Shown: positions 1 through 37,564 of the stretch, piece by piece | How the letters are laid out: every line of letters begins with the position of its first letter | Numbering within the stretch: the first letter of the stretch is position 1 | DNA from: a virus | Reading direction: 5' to 3' (one strand) | Length of the DNA: 37,564 bases | Virus record (IMG/VR): IMGVR_UViG_3300028031_000003 | Coordinates: 1-37,564 of that record | Position numbers and translations under genes: made by a program | Notes under the pieces: model-generated | Told to the model about the DNA's origin: nothing | The model's database searches: none | The model's input: the letters and a program-made list of their open reading frames with translations, nothing else

Positions 1-127
1 GAGGAGTGCAAATAAATCCATATCAAATGCTGTCATAGAGACAGGAAAGGCTAAGTTAACAGATGTCATCTACATGGTTAATAATTTGCCTTATGCGGCT
101 GAGATTGAAAGAGGCAGTAGCAAGCAA
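1..127. repeat. Terminal direct repeat, identical to 37438..37564 (end overlap of a circular or circularly permuted genome; unique length 37,437 bp)
   Basis: Both ends read gaggagtgcaaataaatccatatcaaatgctgtcatagagacagg...gaaagaggcagtagcaagcaa. The CDS that starts at 37253 continues in frame into 1..202. Confidence 0.95.
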
Positions 128-13824: not shown

Positions 13825-14022
13825 TTAACTATATTTTTTATACTTAAGTTTTTTTATTGATGTAAGGTGATATTTTCCACAGGCTGGGCAGATATAAGCC
13901 CTAAGCTTATTGTCTTTATTTCGTTTACATTTTTTTTCTTTTTTTGTTCGGTTTGATTTAAAAATAAAACAAGCATCATTTAATGCCTCTTTTTTTGTTT
14001 CATAAGTAATTTTGTTGCACAT
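13825..14022 (-). CDS. Small basic zinc-ribbon-like protein
   Basis: 65 aa, with YICPACGKYHLTS near the C-terminus. Confidence 0.5.
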   Translation of the reverse strand: MCNKITYETKKEALNDACFIFKSNRTKKEKKCKRNKDNKLRAYICPACGKYHLTSIKKLKYKKYS

Positions 14023-14385
14023 TCAAAACCCCATATAATCTGATATTACGTCTTTAGCTTCCAACCAAGAATAGCACGTATGCGTCAAATAACCCTCGGA
14101 ATGTACAAATTCACCAAAGCTCTCCTGTTTTTCTGTAAGCTTATTTCTGCCGTATTTCATTTCAATATACAAGCCATGATATCCGTTCTTTGCCACTGGC
14201 AAGAAGACATCCCAAACCCCTGACTTTGCCCCTTGAGATTTTAAAACGGCCATCCTCTTAGCTCTCTGGGCCTTATTTCCGGCTAAAAACGCGCCATTTA
14301 TTGAGCTATGCATCCATTTAAGAGCCGGGTAATTTGATGCCCAATTAAAAAGCGCTTTTTGATGAATTGATTCAAAGTGTCTCAT
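14023..14385 (-). CDS. VRR-NUC domain nuclease
   Basis: GVWDVFLPVAKNGYHGLYIEMKYGRNKLTEKQESFGEFVHSEGY fits the VRR-NUC D...(E/I)xK plus Q core. Confidence 0.7.
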   Translation of the reverse strand: MRHFESIHQKALFNWASNYPALKWMHSSINGAFLAGNKAQRAKRMAVLKSQGAKSGVWDVFLPVAKNGYHGLYIEMKYGRNKLTEKQESFGEFVHSEGYLTHTCYSWLEAKDVISDYMGF

Positions 14386-19590: not shown

Positions 19591-20013
19591 TTATTTTTTT
19601 TTCATGCTATTTAAGTTTTCGTTATGAATTCTTTCGCCAATTTTAAATATTTTATCTTCCGAGACCGACATTTTTCTTGATGAATTCATTAGTTTATTCA
19701 CTAAATAAAAATTTAAGCATTCATCAAGTGCCTGATTTTTTAGACTGTCATCATTTTCTTGTTTTTTTACATCAGGTAACTGATTATAAAAAGCAGAAAA
19801 TAAAAACATTTTTCCTTTTCTCGTGATATATTTATTTGCATCAATTAATTTGAGATGCTTCATTATGAGAGTCAAGGTTCCACCACTTTTATACCCAGCT
19901 TGAGATTTTAAAACACCTTGTTCAAGCAACTTTCTATGATCTCTGGAGCCAAAATTCGAGTCGTCAAAAGCCTTTTTAATTTGTTCATCTAAAACATTTG
20001 TTTTTATACTCAT
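19591..20013 (-). CDS. Hypothetical protein
   Basis: 140-aa ORF. Confidence 0.5.
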   Translation of the reverse strand: MSIKTNVLDEQIKKAFDDSNFGSRDHRKLLEQGVLKSQAGYKSGGTLTLIMKHLKLIDANKYITRKGKMFLFSAFYNQLPDVKKQENDDSLKNQALDECLNFYLVNKLMNSSRKMSVSEDKIFKIGERIHNENLNSMKKK

Positions 20014-20016
20014 AAA

Positions 20017-20328
20017 TCACTCTCTGATTAAGCTTCCATTTAGTTCAATTCGATTTCTGTCTAAATCCCTAATTTCATCAATAACATCGCTTGCGTAGAA
20101 AACCTCCGCTTGAGAATAATTAGTTTTATATTCTCTATTTATAATTTCTTTTTTGTAAACTGCGGAATAATATTCGAATAGTAAGAAAGGATATGCGGAC
20201 AACATCATAAGTGCTAAAATAAGCACCACAAGCCAAAGCGTTTGTAGTTCGTAGTGCATCCGAAACTTTTCTTGTAAAAATATGGAAAAAATTATTAGCG
20301 TGATTATTGATATTAAAATTAAAATCAT
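20017..20328 (-). CDS. Small membrane protein (two TM segments)
   Basis: MILILISIITLIIFSIFLQEKF...LWLVVLILALMMLSAYPFLLF.... The longer ORF (to 20391) would run into the tRNA-Arg gene, so I use the start at 20328. Confidence 0.5.
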   Translation of the reverse strand: MILILISIITLIIFSIFLQEKFRMHYELQTLWLVVLILALMMLSAYPFLLFEYYSAVYKKEIINREYKTNYSQAEVFYASDVIDEIRDLDRNRIELNGSLIRE

Positions 20329-20357: not shown

Positions 20358-20434
20358 TGGCGCGCCTAGAGGGATTCGAACCCCCAGCCAATAGAGTAGA
20401 AATCTATTGCTTTATCCAATTAAGCTATAGGCGC
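20358..20434 (-). tRNA. tRNA-Arg (anticodon UCU), CCA encoded
   Basis: The reverse complement GCGCCTA-TA-GCTT-AATTGGATA-AAGC-A-ATAGA-TTTCTAC-TCTAT-TGGCT-GGGGG-TTCGAAT-CCCTC-TAGGCGC-G-CCA folds into a full cloverleaf of 77 nt. Confidence 0.9.
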
Positions 20435-21853: not shown

Positions 21854-22276
21854 TTATTTAACTCCAATTTTTCTGAAATACTCATCTGGTAGCATGAATT
21901 TTATATTTAAATAATCACAAACTTCCATGGCTGCATCAATGAATAGTATTAAATCCTCTAAACTTGCCTTGCTAAGCGATTTAGGGCGCTTCTCGTCAAC
22001 TTCGTTTACCTTAACTACCTGATAATAGCCTAGCTTCAATTTTAGCCTGAACTTGAAGTCCTCCATGTCCTCACCAGTTTCCTTACAAATCATAGAAGCC
22101 AGTAAATGAAAATAAGAATTTTGCGGCAAGGTCTTTTTCATCTTTGCCTTTTCAAAAGTAACTTGAACTGGCTTTTTTATTTTTTTAAGCATATTTCGTA
22201 TGCTTCTGCCTAAACACTTCATATTTTTATCTTTGTCGGCCGGGTTTATGTAATACAATTTTTTCAAGAGTAGCAA
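21854..22276 (-). CDS. ninB: NinB/Orf-family recombination mediator
   Basis: KTLPQNSYFHLLASMICKETG and SLSKASLEDLILFIDAAMEVCDYLNIKF parallel lambda NinB RSLDQNRKLWACLGDVS and STSRMRVGEFAELLELIQAFGTERGVKW. Confidence 0.6.
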   Translation of the reverse strand: MLLLKKLYYINPADKDKNMKCLGRSIRNMLKKIKKPVQVTFEKAKMKKTLPQNSYFHLLASMICKETGEDMEDFKFRLKLKLGYYQVVKVNEVDEKRPKSLSKASLEDLILFIDAAMEVCDYLNIKFMLPDEYFRKIGVK

Positions 22277-22533
22277 GCCCTAACTTCGCCAAAATCAATA
22301 ATGTACACGTCTTTTCTTTGGTCTCCTTTTTTAGGCTGAGCACGCATGACAATCAAAGATTTTTCAGTTTTTTCCATTGAATTATATTCGTTATAATTTT
22401 TTGCCGCTTCTGCGAAGCCCTCGATTGTGTCACGAGTAAAAACCAAGTCATCAACGTCAACGTCAAGCCATTCATCAAGCTCTGAGAATTTTTCTGTTAT
22501 TTCTGAATCGGTTAGTTCAATTAGGTTTCTCAT
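22264..22533 (-). CDS. Acidic early protein (89 aa), first gene after promoter repeat copy 1
   Basis: MRNLIELTDSEITEKFSELDEWLDVDVDD.... The longer ORF (to 22680) would read through the promoter/UTR repeat, so I use the start at 22533. Confidence 0.55.
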   Translation of the reverse strand: MRNLIELTDSEITEKFSELDEWLDVDVDDLVFTRDTIEGFAEAAKNYNEYNSMEKTEKSLIVMRAQPKKGDQRKDVYIIDFGEVRACYS

Positions 22534-22542
22534 AATCTTTGC

Positions 22543-22604
22543 CCTGTTTGTTGTTTTGTTTAACTTGTAATAATTATACGGCCGTAATGTTGTTACGTCA
22601 ATAG
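22543..22604 (-). repeat. 62-bp exact repeat (promoter plus 5'UTR cassette), copy 1
   Basis: cctgtttgttgttttgtttaacttgtaataattatacggccgtaatgttgttacgtcaatag is identical to 24819..24880. Confidence 0.95.
22573..22601 (-). promoter_or_regulatory. Sigma-70-type promoter inside repeat copy 1 (TTGACG - 17 nt - TATAAT)
   Basis: The reverse complement reads TTGACGtaacaacattacggccgTATAAT, followed by the CA-rich leader ttacaagttaaacaaaacaacaaacaggg and ATG 22533. Confidence 0.7.
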
Positions 22605-22636
22605 GATAATTATTTCCTCTGACAAGCGGTAATAAT

Positions 22637-22813
22637 TTAATTTTCCTGAGCCAAGCAATACCCAAGCGCAACAAGCACATCTAGCTTAGCTTTAGCTAAT
22701 TTATAGTTTTGGTAATGTGTATCATTAACTTTTGAGCCATCTGGCCTGAAAATTCCGTAAACTTTTTTCTTGCTCGATGTGAATGTCCTTATTTGGTAAA
22801 TTTTCTTAGTCAT
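22637..22813 (-). CDS. Small basic hypothetical protein (58 aa)
   Basis: MTKKIYQIRTFTSSKKKVYGIFRPDGSKVNDTHYQNYKLAKAKLDVLVALGYCLAQEN. The start overlaps the upstream stop (TAATG). Confidence 0.45.
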   Translation of the reverse strand: MTKKIYQIRTFTSSKKKVYGIFRPDGSKVNDTHYQNYKLAKAKLDVLVALGYCLAQEN

Positions 22814-24588: not shown

Positions 24589-24810
24589 TTATTTAAAATA
24601 AAGATTATTTATGTCTGATTCAAATTTATCTAAGCCTGATGCTCCGCTAATTGCATTTGCGCAAGATAATGCATAGCGTTTTTCAGGCATTTCTACCACT
24701 TCTCCATCTTTTTGATAAACAACTGTGCTTGATTCTGTTTGTTTAACAAATAATTCAGTTTCTGAATCATCAATAATAATGTTGTTATTTGTGTTTATTT
24801 GTAAAGTCAT
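24589..24810 (-). CDS. Hypothetical early protein (73 aa), first gene after promoter repeat copy 2
   Basis: The ATG lies 8 nt after the ACAGGAAAA end of the repeated leader. Confidence 0.55.
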   Translation of the reverse strand: MTLQINTNNNIIIDDSETELFVKQTESSTVVYQKDGEVVEMPEKRYALSCANAISGASGLDKFESDINNLYFK

Positions 24811-24818
24811 AATATTTT

Positions 24819-24880
24819 CCTGTTTGTTGTTTTGTTTAACTTGTAATAATTATACGGCCGTAATGTTGTTACGTCAATAG
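24819..24880 (-). repeat. 62-bp exact repeat (promoter plus 5'UTR cassette), copy 2
   Basis: Identical to 22543..22604. Confidence 0.95.
24849..24877 (-). promoter_or_regulatory. Sigma-70-type promoter inside repeat copy 2 (TTGACG - 17 nt - TATAAT)
   Basis: Same sequence as 22573..22601. Confidence 0.7.
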
Positions 24881-24957: not shown

Positions 24958-25066
24958 GCCGGGTTAGCTTTAATCGGTAAAAGCGGTGCTTTGTAGCTGA
25001 AAAGATTTTTTAAAAATCCAGCGCTAAAGCTCATATGATCAGTTCGAATCTGGTCACCCGGTGCCA
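24958..25066 (+). tRNA. Atypical 109-nt tRNA-like gene with an extra 22-29 nt in the anticodon arm (reads as Tyr-GUA with a 37/38 insertion, or exposes a UUA loop)
   Basis: It has an acceptor GCCGGGT/ACCCGGT followed by G-CCA, a D arm GCTT-TAATCGGTAA-AAGC and a T arm ATCAG-TTCGAAT-CTGGT. The stem GTGCT/AGCGC encloses ttgtagctgaaaaGATTTTttaAAAATCc. Confidence 0.5.
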
Positions 25067-25127: not shown

Positions 25128-25202
25128 AGGCCAGTAGCTCAAAGGTAGACCAAGGCACTAATAATGCCTTGGTTGCTGGTTCAAATCCGGCTTGGCCTAC
25201 CA
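25128..25202 (+). tRNA. tRNA-Ile-like with anticodon AAU (A34), CCA encoded
   Basis: AGGCCAG-TA-GCTC-AAAGGTA-GACC-A-AGGCA-CTAATAA-TGCCT-TGGTT-GCTGG-TTCAAAT-CCGGC-TTGGCCT-A-CCA. The acceptor, discriminator and T arm resemble bacterial tRNA-Ile(GAU). Confidence 0.75.
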
Positions 25203-25206
25203 GTTT

Positions 25207-25282
25207 GAGAGTTTAGTGTAGCGTTATTACACTGGTCTTCAAGACCAGAGAAAGTCGGGTTCAATTCCCGCTGATCTCACCA
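25207..25282 (+). tRNA. tRNA-like gene with anticodon UCA (opal-suppressor / Trp-UCA type); imperfect acceptor and D stems
   Basis: The anticodon arm CTGGT-CTTCAAG-ACCAG has U33 and A37 and resembles the tRNA-Trp arm. The T arm is (T)CGGG-TTCAATT-CCCG(C) and the 3' end is ...TGATCTC-A-CCA. Acceptor pairs 5 and 7 mismatch. Confidence 0.5.
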
Positions 25283-25326
25283 TTTTTATCCATAATCCTT
25301 TGGATTTTATTAGCTTGATGGACATT

Positions 25327-25728
25327 TTATTCTCCTGCTAATTTCTTAGCTTTTTTTAAAACTTTAATTAATTTATCAAAATCAGACCAATCGCAGGCCT
25401 TTATCTGGTTAATGTATATTCGGTTTTTATCCCAGTGCAGCATACTCTTTTTATTTTGATCAGAATAAGCAAATGAGTCATTTTTTCCGAAAACAAAGCC
25501 GCTGGCTAAAATCCGGTTTTTATCTTTCTTTTTTTCCTGAGAAGGGAACCACTCAAGCTTTATCTTTTTGTTGCTACCTTTTATTAATCGATGAATAAGC
25601 TTTGGCCCTGCATGAGCAGTTCCGTTGAAAACATTAGATAGACTCCCTCGTGAGGAGCCTATCTTTTTGGCAAACTCTGTTTTTTTATTGCTGGTGAGAG
25701 TGCACCAATACGCTTGTAATTTTGTCAT
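25327..25728 (-). CDS. HTH DNA-binding regulator (Cro/YdaS-like N-domain plus C-terminal domain); putative repressor
   Basis: KTEFAKKIGSSRGSLSNVFNGTAHAGPKLIHRLIKGSNKKIKLEWF is a helix-turn-helix pattern. It is the first gene of the minus-strand arm at the divergent control region. Confidence 0.6.
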   Translation of the reverse strand: MTKLQAYWCTLTSNKKTEFAKKIGSSRGSLSNVFNGTAHAGPKLIHRLIKGSNKKIKLEWFPSQEKKKDKNRILASGFVFGKNDSFAYSDQNKKSMLHWDKNRIYINQIKACDWSDFDKLIKVLKKAKKLAGE

Positions 25729-37256: not shown

Positions 37257-37564
37257 GCTTATCATCAGATTTAGCTGCATTTTCTAAAAAAACCGAAGCA
37301 GCCGGAGAGAAAGTTTTTAGAGGGTCGGCTTTAGAAATTTTATCAACAGGTATAAAGAGGACTCCTGTTTTGTCAGGTCGGTTGCGAGGCAACTGGTTTA
37401 CAAAAATTAATAAAATAGATGGCTCATCATCCGATGGGAGGAGTGCAAATAAATCCATATCAAATGCTGTCATAGAGACAGGAAAGGCTAAGTTAACAGA
37501 TGTCATCTACATGGTTAATAATTTGCCTTATGCGGCTGAGATTGAAAGAGGCAGTAGCAAGCAA
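37253..37564 (+). CDS. HK97 gp10-like tail-completion/neck protein, N-terminal part (runs off the window end and continues at 128..202 after the junction)
   Basis: The ATG at 37253 overlaps the TGA of the upstream gene (ATGA). Translation is MSLSSDLAAFSKKTEAAGEKVFRGSALEILSTGIKRTPVLSGRLRGNWFTKINK..., with no stop before the window end. Confidence 0.75.
   Translation, partial: MSLSSDLAAFSKKTEAAGEKVFRGSALEILSTGIKRTPVLSGRLRGNWFTKINKIDGSSSDGRSANKSISNAVIETGKAKLTDVIYMVNNLPYAAEIERGSSKQ
37438..37564. repeat. Second copy of the 127-bp terminal direct repeat
   Basis: Exact match to 1..127 by direct comparison. Confidence 0.95.

Follow-up and report, generated by a model that had tools for sequence, protein, structure and literature searches.

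A structurally weak tRNA-like gene with a UCA anticodon in a marine phage that uses TGA as an ordinary stop codon

Introduction

Transfer RNAs (tRNAs) that suppress stop codons are well documented in alternatively coded phages, including the crAss-like, Lak, Agate and Jade phages (bioRxiv 10.1101/2021.08.26.457843). The same study describes a TGA suppressor tRNA in a standard-code relative of the Agate phages, in which TGA ends 4 of 146 genes, and the standard-code-compatible phages of hosts using genetic code 25 avoid relying on TGA stops (PMC10746230). Here, we analyse a tRNA-like gene with the anticodon UCA, hereafter tRNA(UCA), at positions 25207..25282 of the virus record IMGVR_UViG_3300028031_000003; by the window we mean the whole stretch of this record that was analysed, 37,564 nucleotides (nt) long.

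Our results show that tRNA(UCA) is a tRNA-derived gene with a weak predicted cloverleaf and a body resembling the tRNA-Gly(UCC) family, carried by a phage that ends 34% of its genes at TGA. We give a probability of roughly one half to the explanation that it is a former Gly-family tRNA which now reads the opal codon UGA weakly or not at all. An initial annotation of the locus had offered three options, namely regulated read-through, a recoded host or one poor in release factor 2 (RF2), and a decaying pseudo-tRNA.

Results

The gene under study is as follows:

25207..25282, plus strand, tRNA-like gene with anticodon UCA (25239..25241), A73, an encoded CCA and a weak cloverleaf (ARAGORN, Rfam)

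ARAGORN, one of the checks proposed with the initial annotation, calls a 76-nt tRNA at 25207..25282 (plus strand, tca starting at 25239) with a score of 102.7, next to 119.9 and 124.7 for the other two tRNAs of the genome, tRNA-Ile and tRNA-Arg. Its label 'SeC' is the program's default name for any tca anticodon. The Rfam model RF00005 matches 25207..25279 with 36.1 bits, reaching the gathering score of 29 and fully covering model positions 1-71, at E = 3.9e-4 for the whole window and 5.7e-6 in a local scan; this bit score is the lowest among the three tRNAs of the genome (others 72.7 and 55.4). The gene begins 4 nt past the CCA end of tRNA-Ile(AAU), and both genes encode their CCA. Taken together, the Rfam match, the ARAGORN call, the CCA and the position directly behind a tRNA-Ile indicate that the resemblance is not due to chance, and that 25207..25282 is a real tRNA-derived gene. 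Both programs therefore agree with the original reading of a tRNA-like gene with a UCA anticodon at 25239..25241, and the flanking genes 24589..24810 and 25327..25728, both on the minus strand, bear out its description of a plus-strand tRNA between minus-strand genes.

Arranged as a cloverleaf, the plus strand of 25207..25282 reads GAGAGTT-TA-GTGT-AGCGTTA-TTAC-A-CTGGT-CTTCAAG-ACCAG-AGAAAG-TCGGG-TTCAATT-CCCGC-TGATCTC-A-CCA. The anticodon arm CTGGT-CTTCAAG-ACCAG, the T loop TTCAATT and the encoded 3' CCA are present as first described, together with the discriminator A73. The poor acceptor stem pointed out at that stage, GAGAGTT/TGATCTC with mismatches at pairs 5 and 7, was found as G5.A68 and U7.U66, to which we add the wobble pair U6.G67. 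Further defects lie outside the acceptor: the T stem is down to 4 base pairs (bp) through a U49.C65 mismatch, and the D loop AGCGUUA is missing G18-G19. C32 and G38 are able to pair, and the variable loop measures 6 nt. Judged by the features of a canonical tRNA (a stable cloverleaf, a 7-bp acceptor stem, G18-G19 and a 5-bp T stem), tRNA(UCA) is not canonical.

To compare folding energies, we took the cloverleaf, restricted to canonical pairs, and the unconstrained minimum of each tRNA in a set of 64 distinct ARAGORN tRNAs, to which E. coli K-12 contributed nearly all of its isoacceptor families, T4 its eight tRNAs and a giant virus one cluster, alongside the window tRNAs. The tRNA-Arg(UCU) of the window served as internal control for a well-formed tRNA in this genome. 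The cloverleaf lay above the optimum by the following amounts:

63 references: median 1.7 kcal/mol
Annotated E. coli, T4 and giant-virus tRNAs: maximum 4.8 kcal/mol
Window tRNA-Arg(UCU): 1.2 kcal/mol
Window tRNA(UCA): 12.5 kcal/mol
Mis-registered ARAGORN call overlapping E. coli argV: 14.8 kcal/mol

The gap of tRNA(UCA) separates a cloverleaf at -10.4 kcal/mol from an optimum at -22.9 kcal/mol. With 17 canonical pairs, the fewest in the set, it has the weakest predicted cloverleaf of any genuine tRNA there, and the sole worse case is the mis-registered call. In this energy model, which is blind to modifications and tertiary contacts and in which a weak fold is no proof of non-function, tRNA(UCA) is a clear structural outlier. 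The favoured predicted fold leaves the 5' GAGAG unpaired and pairs the 3' UCUC with an internal GAGA of the variable region, stretching the T hairpin into a minihelix-like stem, and the D region becomes a 7-bp hairpin that borrows one anticodon-stem base.

Global alignments of tRNA(UCA) with about 60 reference tRNAs (E. coli, T4 and a few others) gave these scores:

E. coli glyT, Gly(UCC): 19 (51/73 identical)
Asp: 13
T4 Gly(UCC): 12
Trp: 7
Cys: 5
Arg: 4-5
Sec (E. coli selC): 2

The best E. coli match is glyT at 19, with the runner-up at 13. The D stem GUGU/UUAC agrees at 7 of 8 positions with the GUAU/UUAC of both Gly(UCC) tRNAs, including the U13.U22 mismatch; the poor D stem reported initially was thus upheld and is partly a family trait, since the same mismatch stands in the Gly(UCC) tRNAs. 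In comparison to glyT the T arm is identical at 15 of 17 positions and the acceptor at 7 of 15, and the anticodon loops read CUUCAAG in tRNA(UCA) and CUUCCAA in glyT. With glyT and the T4 tRNA-Gly, tRNA(UCA) shares a D stem of the form GURU/UUAC with U13.U22, the loop pattern CUUC-A, G1-C72, G3-C70, C35 and G10-Y25:G45. It departs from the family in having A73 instead of U73, A2-U71 instead of C2-G71, and pairs 5-7 mismatched or wobbling. These comparisons suggest that tRNA(UCA) apparently descended from, or recombined with, the tRNA-Gly(UCC) family. The likeness to a tRNA-Trp anticodon arm proposed in the initial annotation survives in part: the anticodon stem does match E. coli trpT at 8 of 10 positions, but tRNA-His and tRNA-Gln(UUG) match equally well, so that the resemblance is unspecific, and the body of the molecule is nearer to Gly(UCC).

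The identity elements were compared with published bacterial sets, which for Gly comprise U73, G1-C72, C2-G71, C35, C36 and the (G10-Y25):G45 triple, and for Trp G73, C35 and A36 (with C34 as standard), A1-U72, G2-C71, G3-C70, G4-C69 and G5-C68 (PMC9976931). At the acceptor and anticodon positions tRNA(UCA) has A73, G1-C72, A2-U71, G3-C70, A4-U69, G5.A68, C35 and A36. About half of the Gly set is kept (G1-C72, C35, and G10-C25 with G45), and U73, C2-G71 and C36 are absent. From the Trp set a minority remains, namely C35, A36 and G3-C70, without G73, A1-U72, G2-C71, G4-C69 and G5-C68. These positions single out no amino acid that tRNA(UCA) would carry, if it carries any. A tRNA-Gly with the change C36U is still charged with glycine and acts as a suppressor in E. 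coli (PMC7954030).

We also considered tRNA-Sec, which is marked by a 13-bp acceptor plus T helix, a 6-bp D stem and a long variable arm, and rejected it: tRNA(UCA) has no long variable arm, shows 7+5 geometry with mismatches rather than 8+5 and carries A73 rather than G73, and selC is the lowest-scoring reference listed above. The likeness is confined to the UCA anticodon, and Rfam clan competition keeps the general tRNA model.

Relatives of the tRNA cluster were sought in several ways. Searches with blastn and megablast, using the region and the tRNA alone, returned nothing useful in cultured phages or E. coli genomes. The UCA tRNA was scanned for with exact and relaxed patterns, which brought up no close homologue, but one tRNA(UCA) from Acidobacteriota and another, unrelated, from soil, besides chance matches in coding sequence; patterns for tRNA-Ile(AAU) and for a tRNA-like element upstream of it gave one giant-virus tRNA-Ile and nothing else. 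Related phages were also fetched through their portal protein (identity of up to 65%) or their Erf (up to 66%), and the Paraglaciecola phage JLT2 was added; none of them has a tRNA in the equivalent region.

The most similar sequence found anywhere is the tRNA(UCA) of an Acidobacteriota metagenome-assembled genome (JBCCFW010000204.1), at 56/73, a match that was selected via the shared anticodon arm, so that its similarity is partly built in and is supportive only. This tRNA is 77 nt long with a short variable loop and lies at 572-648 of the fetched contig locus, 35 nt after a tRNA-Gly(GCC) with which it has the D and T arms in common, making the two obvious siblings. Its surroundings look chromosomal (a short-chain dehydrogenase and leucine-rich repeat proteins), and in what is presumably a bacterium with the standard code it may be an opal reader of Gly origin. 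It resembles tRNA(UCA) of the window in the anticodon arm, A73 and the architecture of the D arm, and the differences are mostly transitions, among them a compensatory change from C11-G24 to U11-A24 in the D stem. It departs from the window tRNA in its high GC content, an acceptor stem paired perfectly over 8 bp, and its chromosome-like surroundings. The soil tRNA(UCA) is an identical, low-scoring 81-nt sequence in two contigs, Ga0079222_10036847 (locus 1036-1116) and Ga0079219_10276638 (106-186), with U73 and an irregular D arm; beyond the anticodon arm used as search pattern it is unrelated to the window tRNA.

Based on these data, our preferred explanation, at a probability of about 0.5, is that tRNA(UCA) is a phage copy of a Gly(UCC)-family tRNA which, having gained A36 and acceptor damage, reads the opal codon weakly or not at all. 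A change of the C at position 36 of the Gly(UCC) family to A would convert UCC to UCA and formally create a reader of UGA and UGG; in E. coli genetics, a C36A variant of glyT suppresses UGA. Transcription would take in tRNA-Ile as well and, as in other phage tRNA clusters, RNase P and 3' nucleases of the host would then trim the transcript; the resulting RNA would be expected to fold and to be charged poorly. The data show the tRNA homology, the anticodon, the use of the standard code, the structural weakness and the family resemblance, and from these we infer expression and processing together with poor charging and low activity. Efficient function is doubtful because the acceptor contains two mismatches and a wobble, the 3' strand prefers the internal GAGA, and neither the Gly nor the Trp identity set is complete. 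After the anticodon change the redundant copy may have drifted, being tolerated because read-through would be low. A code-switching device it most likely is not. Of the three options originally proposed, the decaying pseudo-tRNA is the one best supported by the structural analysis, which does not prove it.

Several observations weigh against this explanation. The anticodon arm, the T loop, U33, A37 and the CCA are all intact, which is unexpected under free decay, and the anticodon stem agrees with glyT at 2 of 10 positions. The Gly ancestry was assigned against a small reference set, the roughly 60 tRNAs named above. The copies in two independent samples are 100% identical, providing no sign of ongoing degeneration and no variation, and pattern scans of IMG/VR, JGI metagenomes and GTDB genomes revealed no homologue of the cluster. 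A weak predicted cloverleaf need not prevent phage and organellar tRNAs from working, given the help of modifications and tertiary contacts. The gap of the neighbouring tRNA-Ile(AAU) is also large, 10.1 kcal/mol, though its cloverleaf is stable at -21.0 kcal/mol.

We then assessed tRNA(UCA) in the context of the phage genome. A 127-bp terminal direct repeat (1..127 and 37438..37564) and a gene order that wraps across the ends indicate a complete circular assembly of about 37,437 bp; a gene of 128 amino acids (aa) spans the junction, from 37253 through to 202. The genome is identical to the ENA contig ERZ27262698:k141_1618878 and to a Logan contig from SRR8439430. It carries a siphovirus structural module (terminase, DUF4055 portal, Mu-F-like head protein, major capsid protein, tail terminator, chaperone, tape measure and large tail proteins) and early genes for Erf, a YqaJ-like exonuclease, a single-stranded DNA-binding protein, NinB, VRR-NUC, endonuclease VII, a cytosine methylase and a pyrophosphatase. 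When the gene set was scanned against Pfam and PHROGs, no integrase, no release factor, including release factor 1 (RF1), no aminoacyl-tRNA synthetase and no tRNA-modifying enzyme came up. The closest cultured phage is Paraglaciecola Antarctic JLT virus 2, with a portal identity of 47.5%, and the remaining cultured relatives all infect Proteobacteria; metagenomic relatives, Tara Oceans sequences among them, reach at most 65% portal identity. Strong sigma-70-type promoters flank the tRNA cluster. From the hosts of the relatives and these promoters, the host is probably a standard-code marine proteobacterium.

TGA is an ordinary stop codon in this genome. The 65 curated genes end in TAA (34), TGA (22, or 34%) and TAG (9), and the ATGA overlaps cited in the initial annotation exist. 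Under code 11 the genome is 91% coding and all large genes (terminase, portal, capsid, tape measure, tail) are intact; a comparison of open reading frames (ORFs) under codes 4 and 15 shows that reading TGA as sense adds only overlapping or antisense ORFs, with no gap ORF that needs it. The genome is thus not globally recoded, as had been argued at the outset, all genes being open under code 11. For four TGA-ended genes we compared the ends of homologues, which fall at or within about 2 residues of the aligned TGA, exactly so in 3 of the 4 and with TAG in one; the would-be read-through tails of these four genes have no counterpart in the homologues. Related phages without tRNA(UCA) also end those genes in TGA. 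The marks of code switching are missing as well: there is no in-frame TGA in genes, no depletion of TGA as terminator, and no release factor or aminoacyl-tRNA synthetase.

The foremost alternative, which we regard as unlikely, is a working opal suppressor used on purpose to raise UGA read-through in the infected cell. Such a tRNA could extend or fuse proteins, disturb host termination, including the UGA-dependent frameshift control of RF2, or buffer nonsense mutations. The intact anticodon loop (U33, UCA, A37), T loop and CCA and the location in a tRNA cluster with a plausible promoter would suit this role, and suppressor tRNAs occur in about 0.3% of standard-code bacterial genomes (PMC13092985). 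In addition, two gene pairs could serve as targets:

14023..14385 and 13825..14022, minus strand, same-frame pair parted only by TGA
20017..20328 and 19591..20013, same-frame pair parted only by TGA

However, same-frame neighbours are equally common after TAA and TAG stops, each downstream ORF has an ATG of its own, the upstream member of one pair is a small membrane protein, and no fused homologue of either pair was found in the fetched related loci. In the first pair, the VRR-NUC gene 14023..14385 runs by TGA-ATG straight into the in-frame 65-aa basic zinc-ribbon-like protein 13825..14022. This is the only read-through fusion that makes some biological sense, and nothing supports it. Genes ending in TGA do not meet a further in-frame stop sooner than those ending in TAA or TAG, and there is no excess of back-up stops directly behind TGA.

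The regulated read-through envisaged in the initial annotation is accordingly without support: a convincing target is missing, back-up stops are not overrepresented, and the genome carries neither an accessory RF1 nor a synthetase that would make up a 'code-change module'. The heavy use of TGA (34% of genes, compared to the 4 of 146 of the precursor described by Borges), the TGA stops of tRNA-free relatives at the same positions, the very weak cloverleaf and the incomplete identity set also argue against a purposeful suppressor. The genome, therefore, shows no adaptation to, or obvious use for, UGA suppression.

The surroundings of tRNA(UCA) contain two further tRNA-like sequences, and a third tRNA lies elsewhere in the genome. 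These features and the neighbouring gene and signals are:

25128..25202, plus strand, tRNA-Ile with anticodon AAU and an encoded CCA (ARAGORN 119.9, Rfam 55.4 bits)
24958..25066, plus strand, upstream tRNA-like element with about 34 extra nt making a long anticodon-arm hairpin (Rfam tRNA model 20.4 bits, below the cut-off)
20358..20434, minus strand, canonical tRNA-Arg(UCU), the third tRNA (Rfam 72.7 bits, ARAGORN 124.7); AGA is the main Arg codon
25061..25088, plus strand, candidate sigma-70 promoter GTGCCA-16-TATAAT, a possible start of transcription for tRNA-Ile and tRNA(UCA), as inferred from a consensus scan (10/12)
25288..25311, plus strand, weak hairpin ATCCA..TGGAT followed by a T-rich run, a possible weak terminator read from the sequence
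25327..25728, minus strand, helix-turn-helix (HTH) DNA-binding protein of 133 aa, convergent neighbour (phrog_3642, E = 4e-5)
24849..24877, minus strand, strong early promoter TTGACG-17-TATAAT that points leftward, away from the tRNA cluster (promoter scan)

In tRNA-Ile(AAU) the A34 at the wobble position is unusual for bacteria and phages, where GAU and lysidine-modified CAU are the norm. Inosine at A34, if formed, would let this tRNA read all three Ile codons, and both ATT (34.6 per 1000, the most-used Ile codon) and ATA (32.7 per 1000) are heavily used in the phage. Its optimum predicted fold has an anticodon stem lengthened to 10 bp. The upstream element has a perfect 7-bp acceptor stem, a GCCA end, a 6-bp T stem with a UUCGAAU loop and no anticodon loop; its D arm is similar to that of the tRNA-Arg of the phage, and it is predicted to adopt a cloverleaf-like fold (z = -2.3). 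An intron-containing tRNA was considered for this element and dropped, as ARAGORN made no call there, its intron mode included.

The hairpin at 25288..25311 sits between tRNA(UCA) and the 3' end of the HTH gene and was not called by the terminator scan, having 2 G-C pairs. For the HTH protein no relatives were found, the protein itself being the sole match among 5.8 billion proteins. An identical cassette of about 70 bp occurs twice on the minus strand, at 22533..22604 and 24808..24880, and consists of the sigma-70 promoter TTGACG-17-TATAAT, a leader and a start codon. The copy at 24808..24880 drives the leftward early operon adjoining the tRNA cluster; from the copy at 22533..22604, the gene called at 22264..22680 probably starts at the ATG near 22533. 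A permissive Rfam scan showed no ribozyme of the hepatitis delta virus (HDV)-like or theta type beside the tRNA.

These neighbours are relevant to a second alternative, which we consider improbable, in which tRNA(UCA), along with the upstream element and tRNA-Ile(AAU), has a task other than decoding. It could be a decoy for host defences that cleave tRNAs or a substitute resistant to them; further possibilities are a processing signal and a stable RNA. None of the cluster members is regular, the upstream element having an extended anticodon arm, tRNA-Ile an A34, and tRNA(UCA) a stop anticodon and a weak acceptor, and the favoured fold of tRNA(UCA) would turn its 3' half into a minihelix-like hairpin ending in ACCA. 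The upstream element also recalls T4 rnaC and rnaD, tRNA-like stable RNAs of unknown function beside the T4 tRNA cluster. On the other hand, defence or anti-defence genes were not identified nearby, no homologues show a conserved alternative structure, and tRNA-Ile(AAU) and tRNA-Arg(UCU) match the top Ile and Arg codons, which fits ordinary decoding by these two tRNAs.

Bolder versions of these two alternatives deserve mention, to which we give little credence. A deliberate Gly-family opal tRNA might remodel the proteome of the infected cell by late or conditional read-through, for example by producing a VRR-NUC plus zinc-ribbon isoform or derailing the autoregulation of RF2, or the three genes might form a decoy set against tRNA-targeting immunity.

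It is very unlikely that no gene exists at 25207..25282 and that the tRNA-like match arose by chance or represents part of a host tRNA, such as a piece of selC, kept as attachment site. The low Rfam score of 36 bits, the ARAGORN label and a 3' half better formed than the 5' half would agree with it; the E-value of 3.9e-4 in the whole window, the position directly after another tRNA and the encoded CCA argue against it. A phage attachment site (attP) or selC fragment was rejected in view of a complete genome without integrase, the lack of selC similarity (score 2) and the absence of a blastn match in E. coli genomes or phages.

The least probable alternative, an ordinary sense tRNA for a host reading UGA as Trp (code 4) or Gly (code 25), can draw on the UCA anticodon and Gly-family likeness, which recall the tRNA-Gly(UCA) of code-25 bacteria, and on the standard-code compatibility of some phages predicted for code-25 hosts (PMC10746230), but it is contradicted by the lack of in-frame TGA, by 22 genes stopping at TGA at positions confirmed by homologues, where code-11-compatible phages of code-25 hosts avoid TGA stops, by A73 and A2-U71, which misfit the bacterial Gly identity set, by relatives that infect Paraglaciecola and other Proteobacteria, and by the sigma-70-type promoters. 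The suggestion of a recoded or RF2-poor host has no support, given the proteobacterial hosts of the relatives, the sigma-70 promoters and the TGA stops used by tRNA-free relatives.

Discussion

The preferred explanation, a weak or inactive opal reader derived from the Gly(UCC) family, has different consequences from an active suppressor. If active, tRNA(UCA) would suppress opal codons in a phage whose own genes still depend heavily on TGA termination, which departs from the path proposed for gut phages, where a stop first becomes rare and is then recoded, and would suggest that phages are able to tolerate or exploit general read-through. If inactive, which we judge likelier, the gene calls for caution, as tRNAs called with a stop anticodon in viral genomes ('SeC', 'Sup') can derive from sense tRNAs by degeneration, in this case apparently from one of the Gly(UCC) type. 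In either case, the call of a stop-anticodon tRNA is no evidence of a code change before structure, identity elements and stop usage are checked.

Among bacteria, the tRNA-Gly(UCA) of the code-25 Gracilibacteria and Absconditabacteria likewise combines a Gly-type body with a UCA anticodon. The window tRNA differs in being without the bacterial Gly elements U73 and C2-G71. Code-25 hosts have no UGA termination and genomes full of in-frame TGA, whereas the window phage and its relatives stop at TGA.

Among phages, the Agate relative offers the closest parallel in one respect: like the window phage, it has a stop-reading tRNA in a genome still on the standard code. The alternatively coded lineages carry recoded stops within the reading frames of late genes, or have hardly any TGA stops in the case of the precursor, whereas the window phage ends 22 of 65 genes with TGA and has none recoded. 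The alternatively coded phages are large gut phages, in contrast to this 37-kb marine siphovirus, which is also without their RF1 or tryptophanyl-tRNA synthetase module and whose tRNA is structurally much weaker. What sets the window phage apart from this parallel is its heavy TGA use, its small genome, its marine proteobacterial lineage and its weak tRNA.

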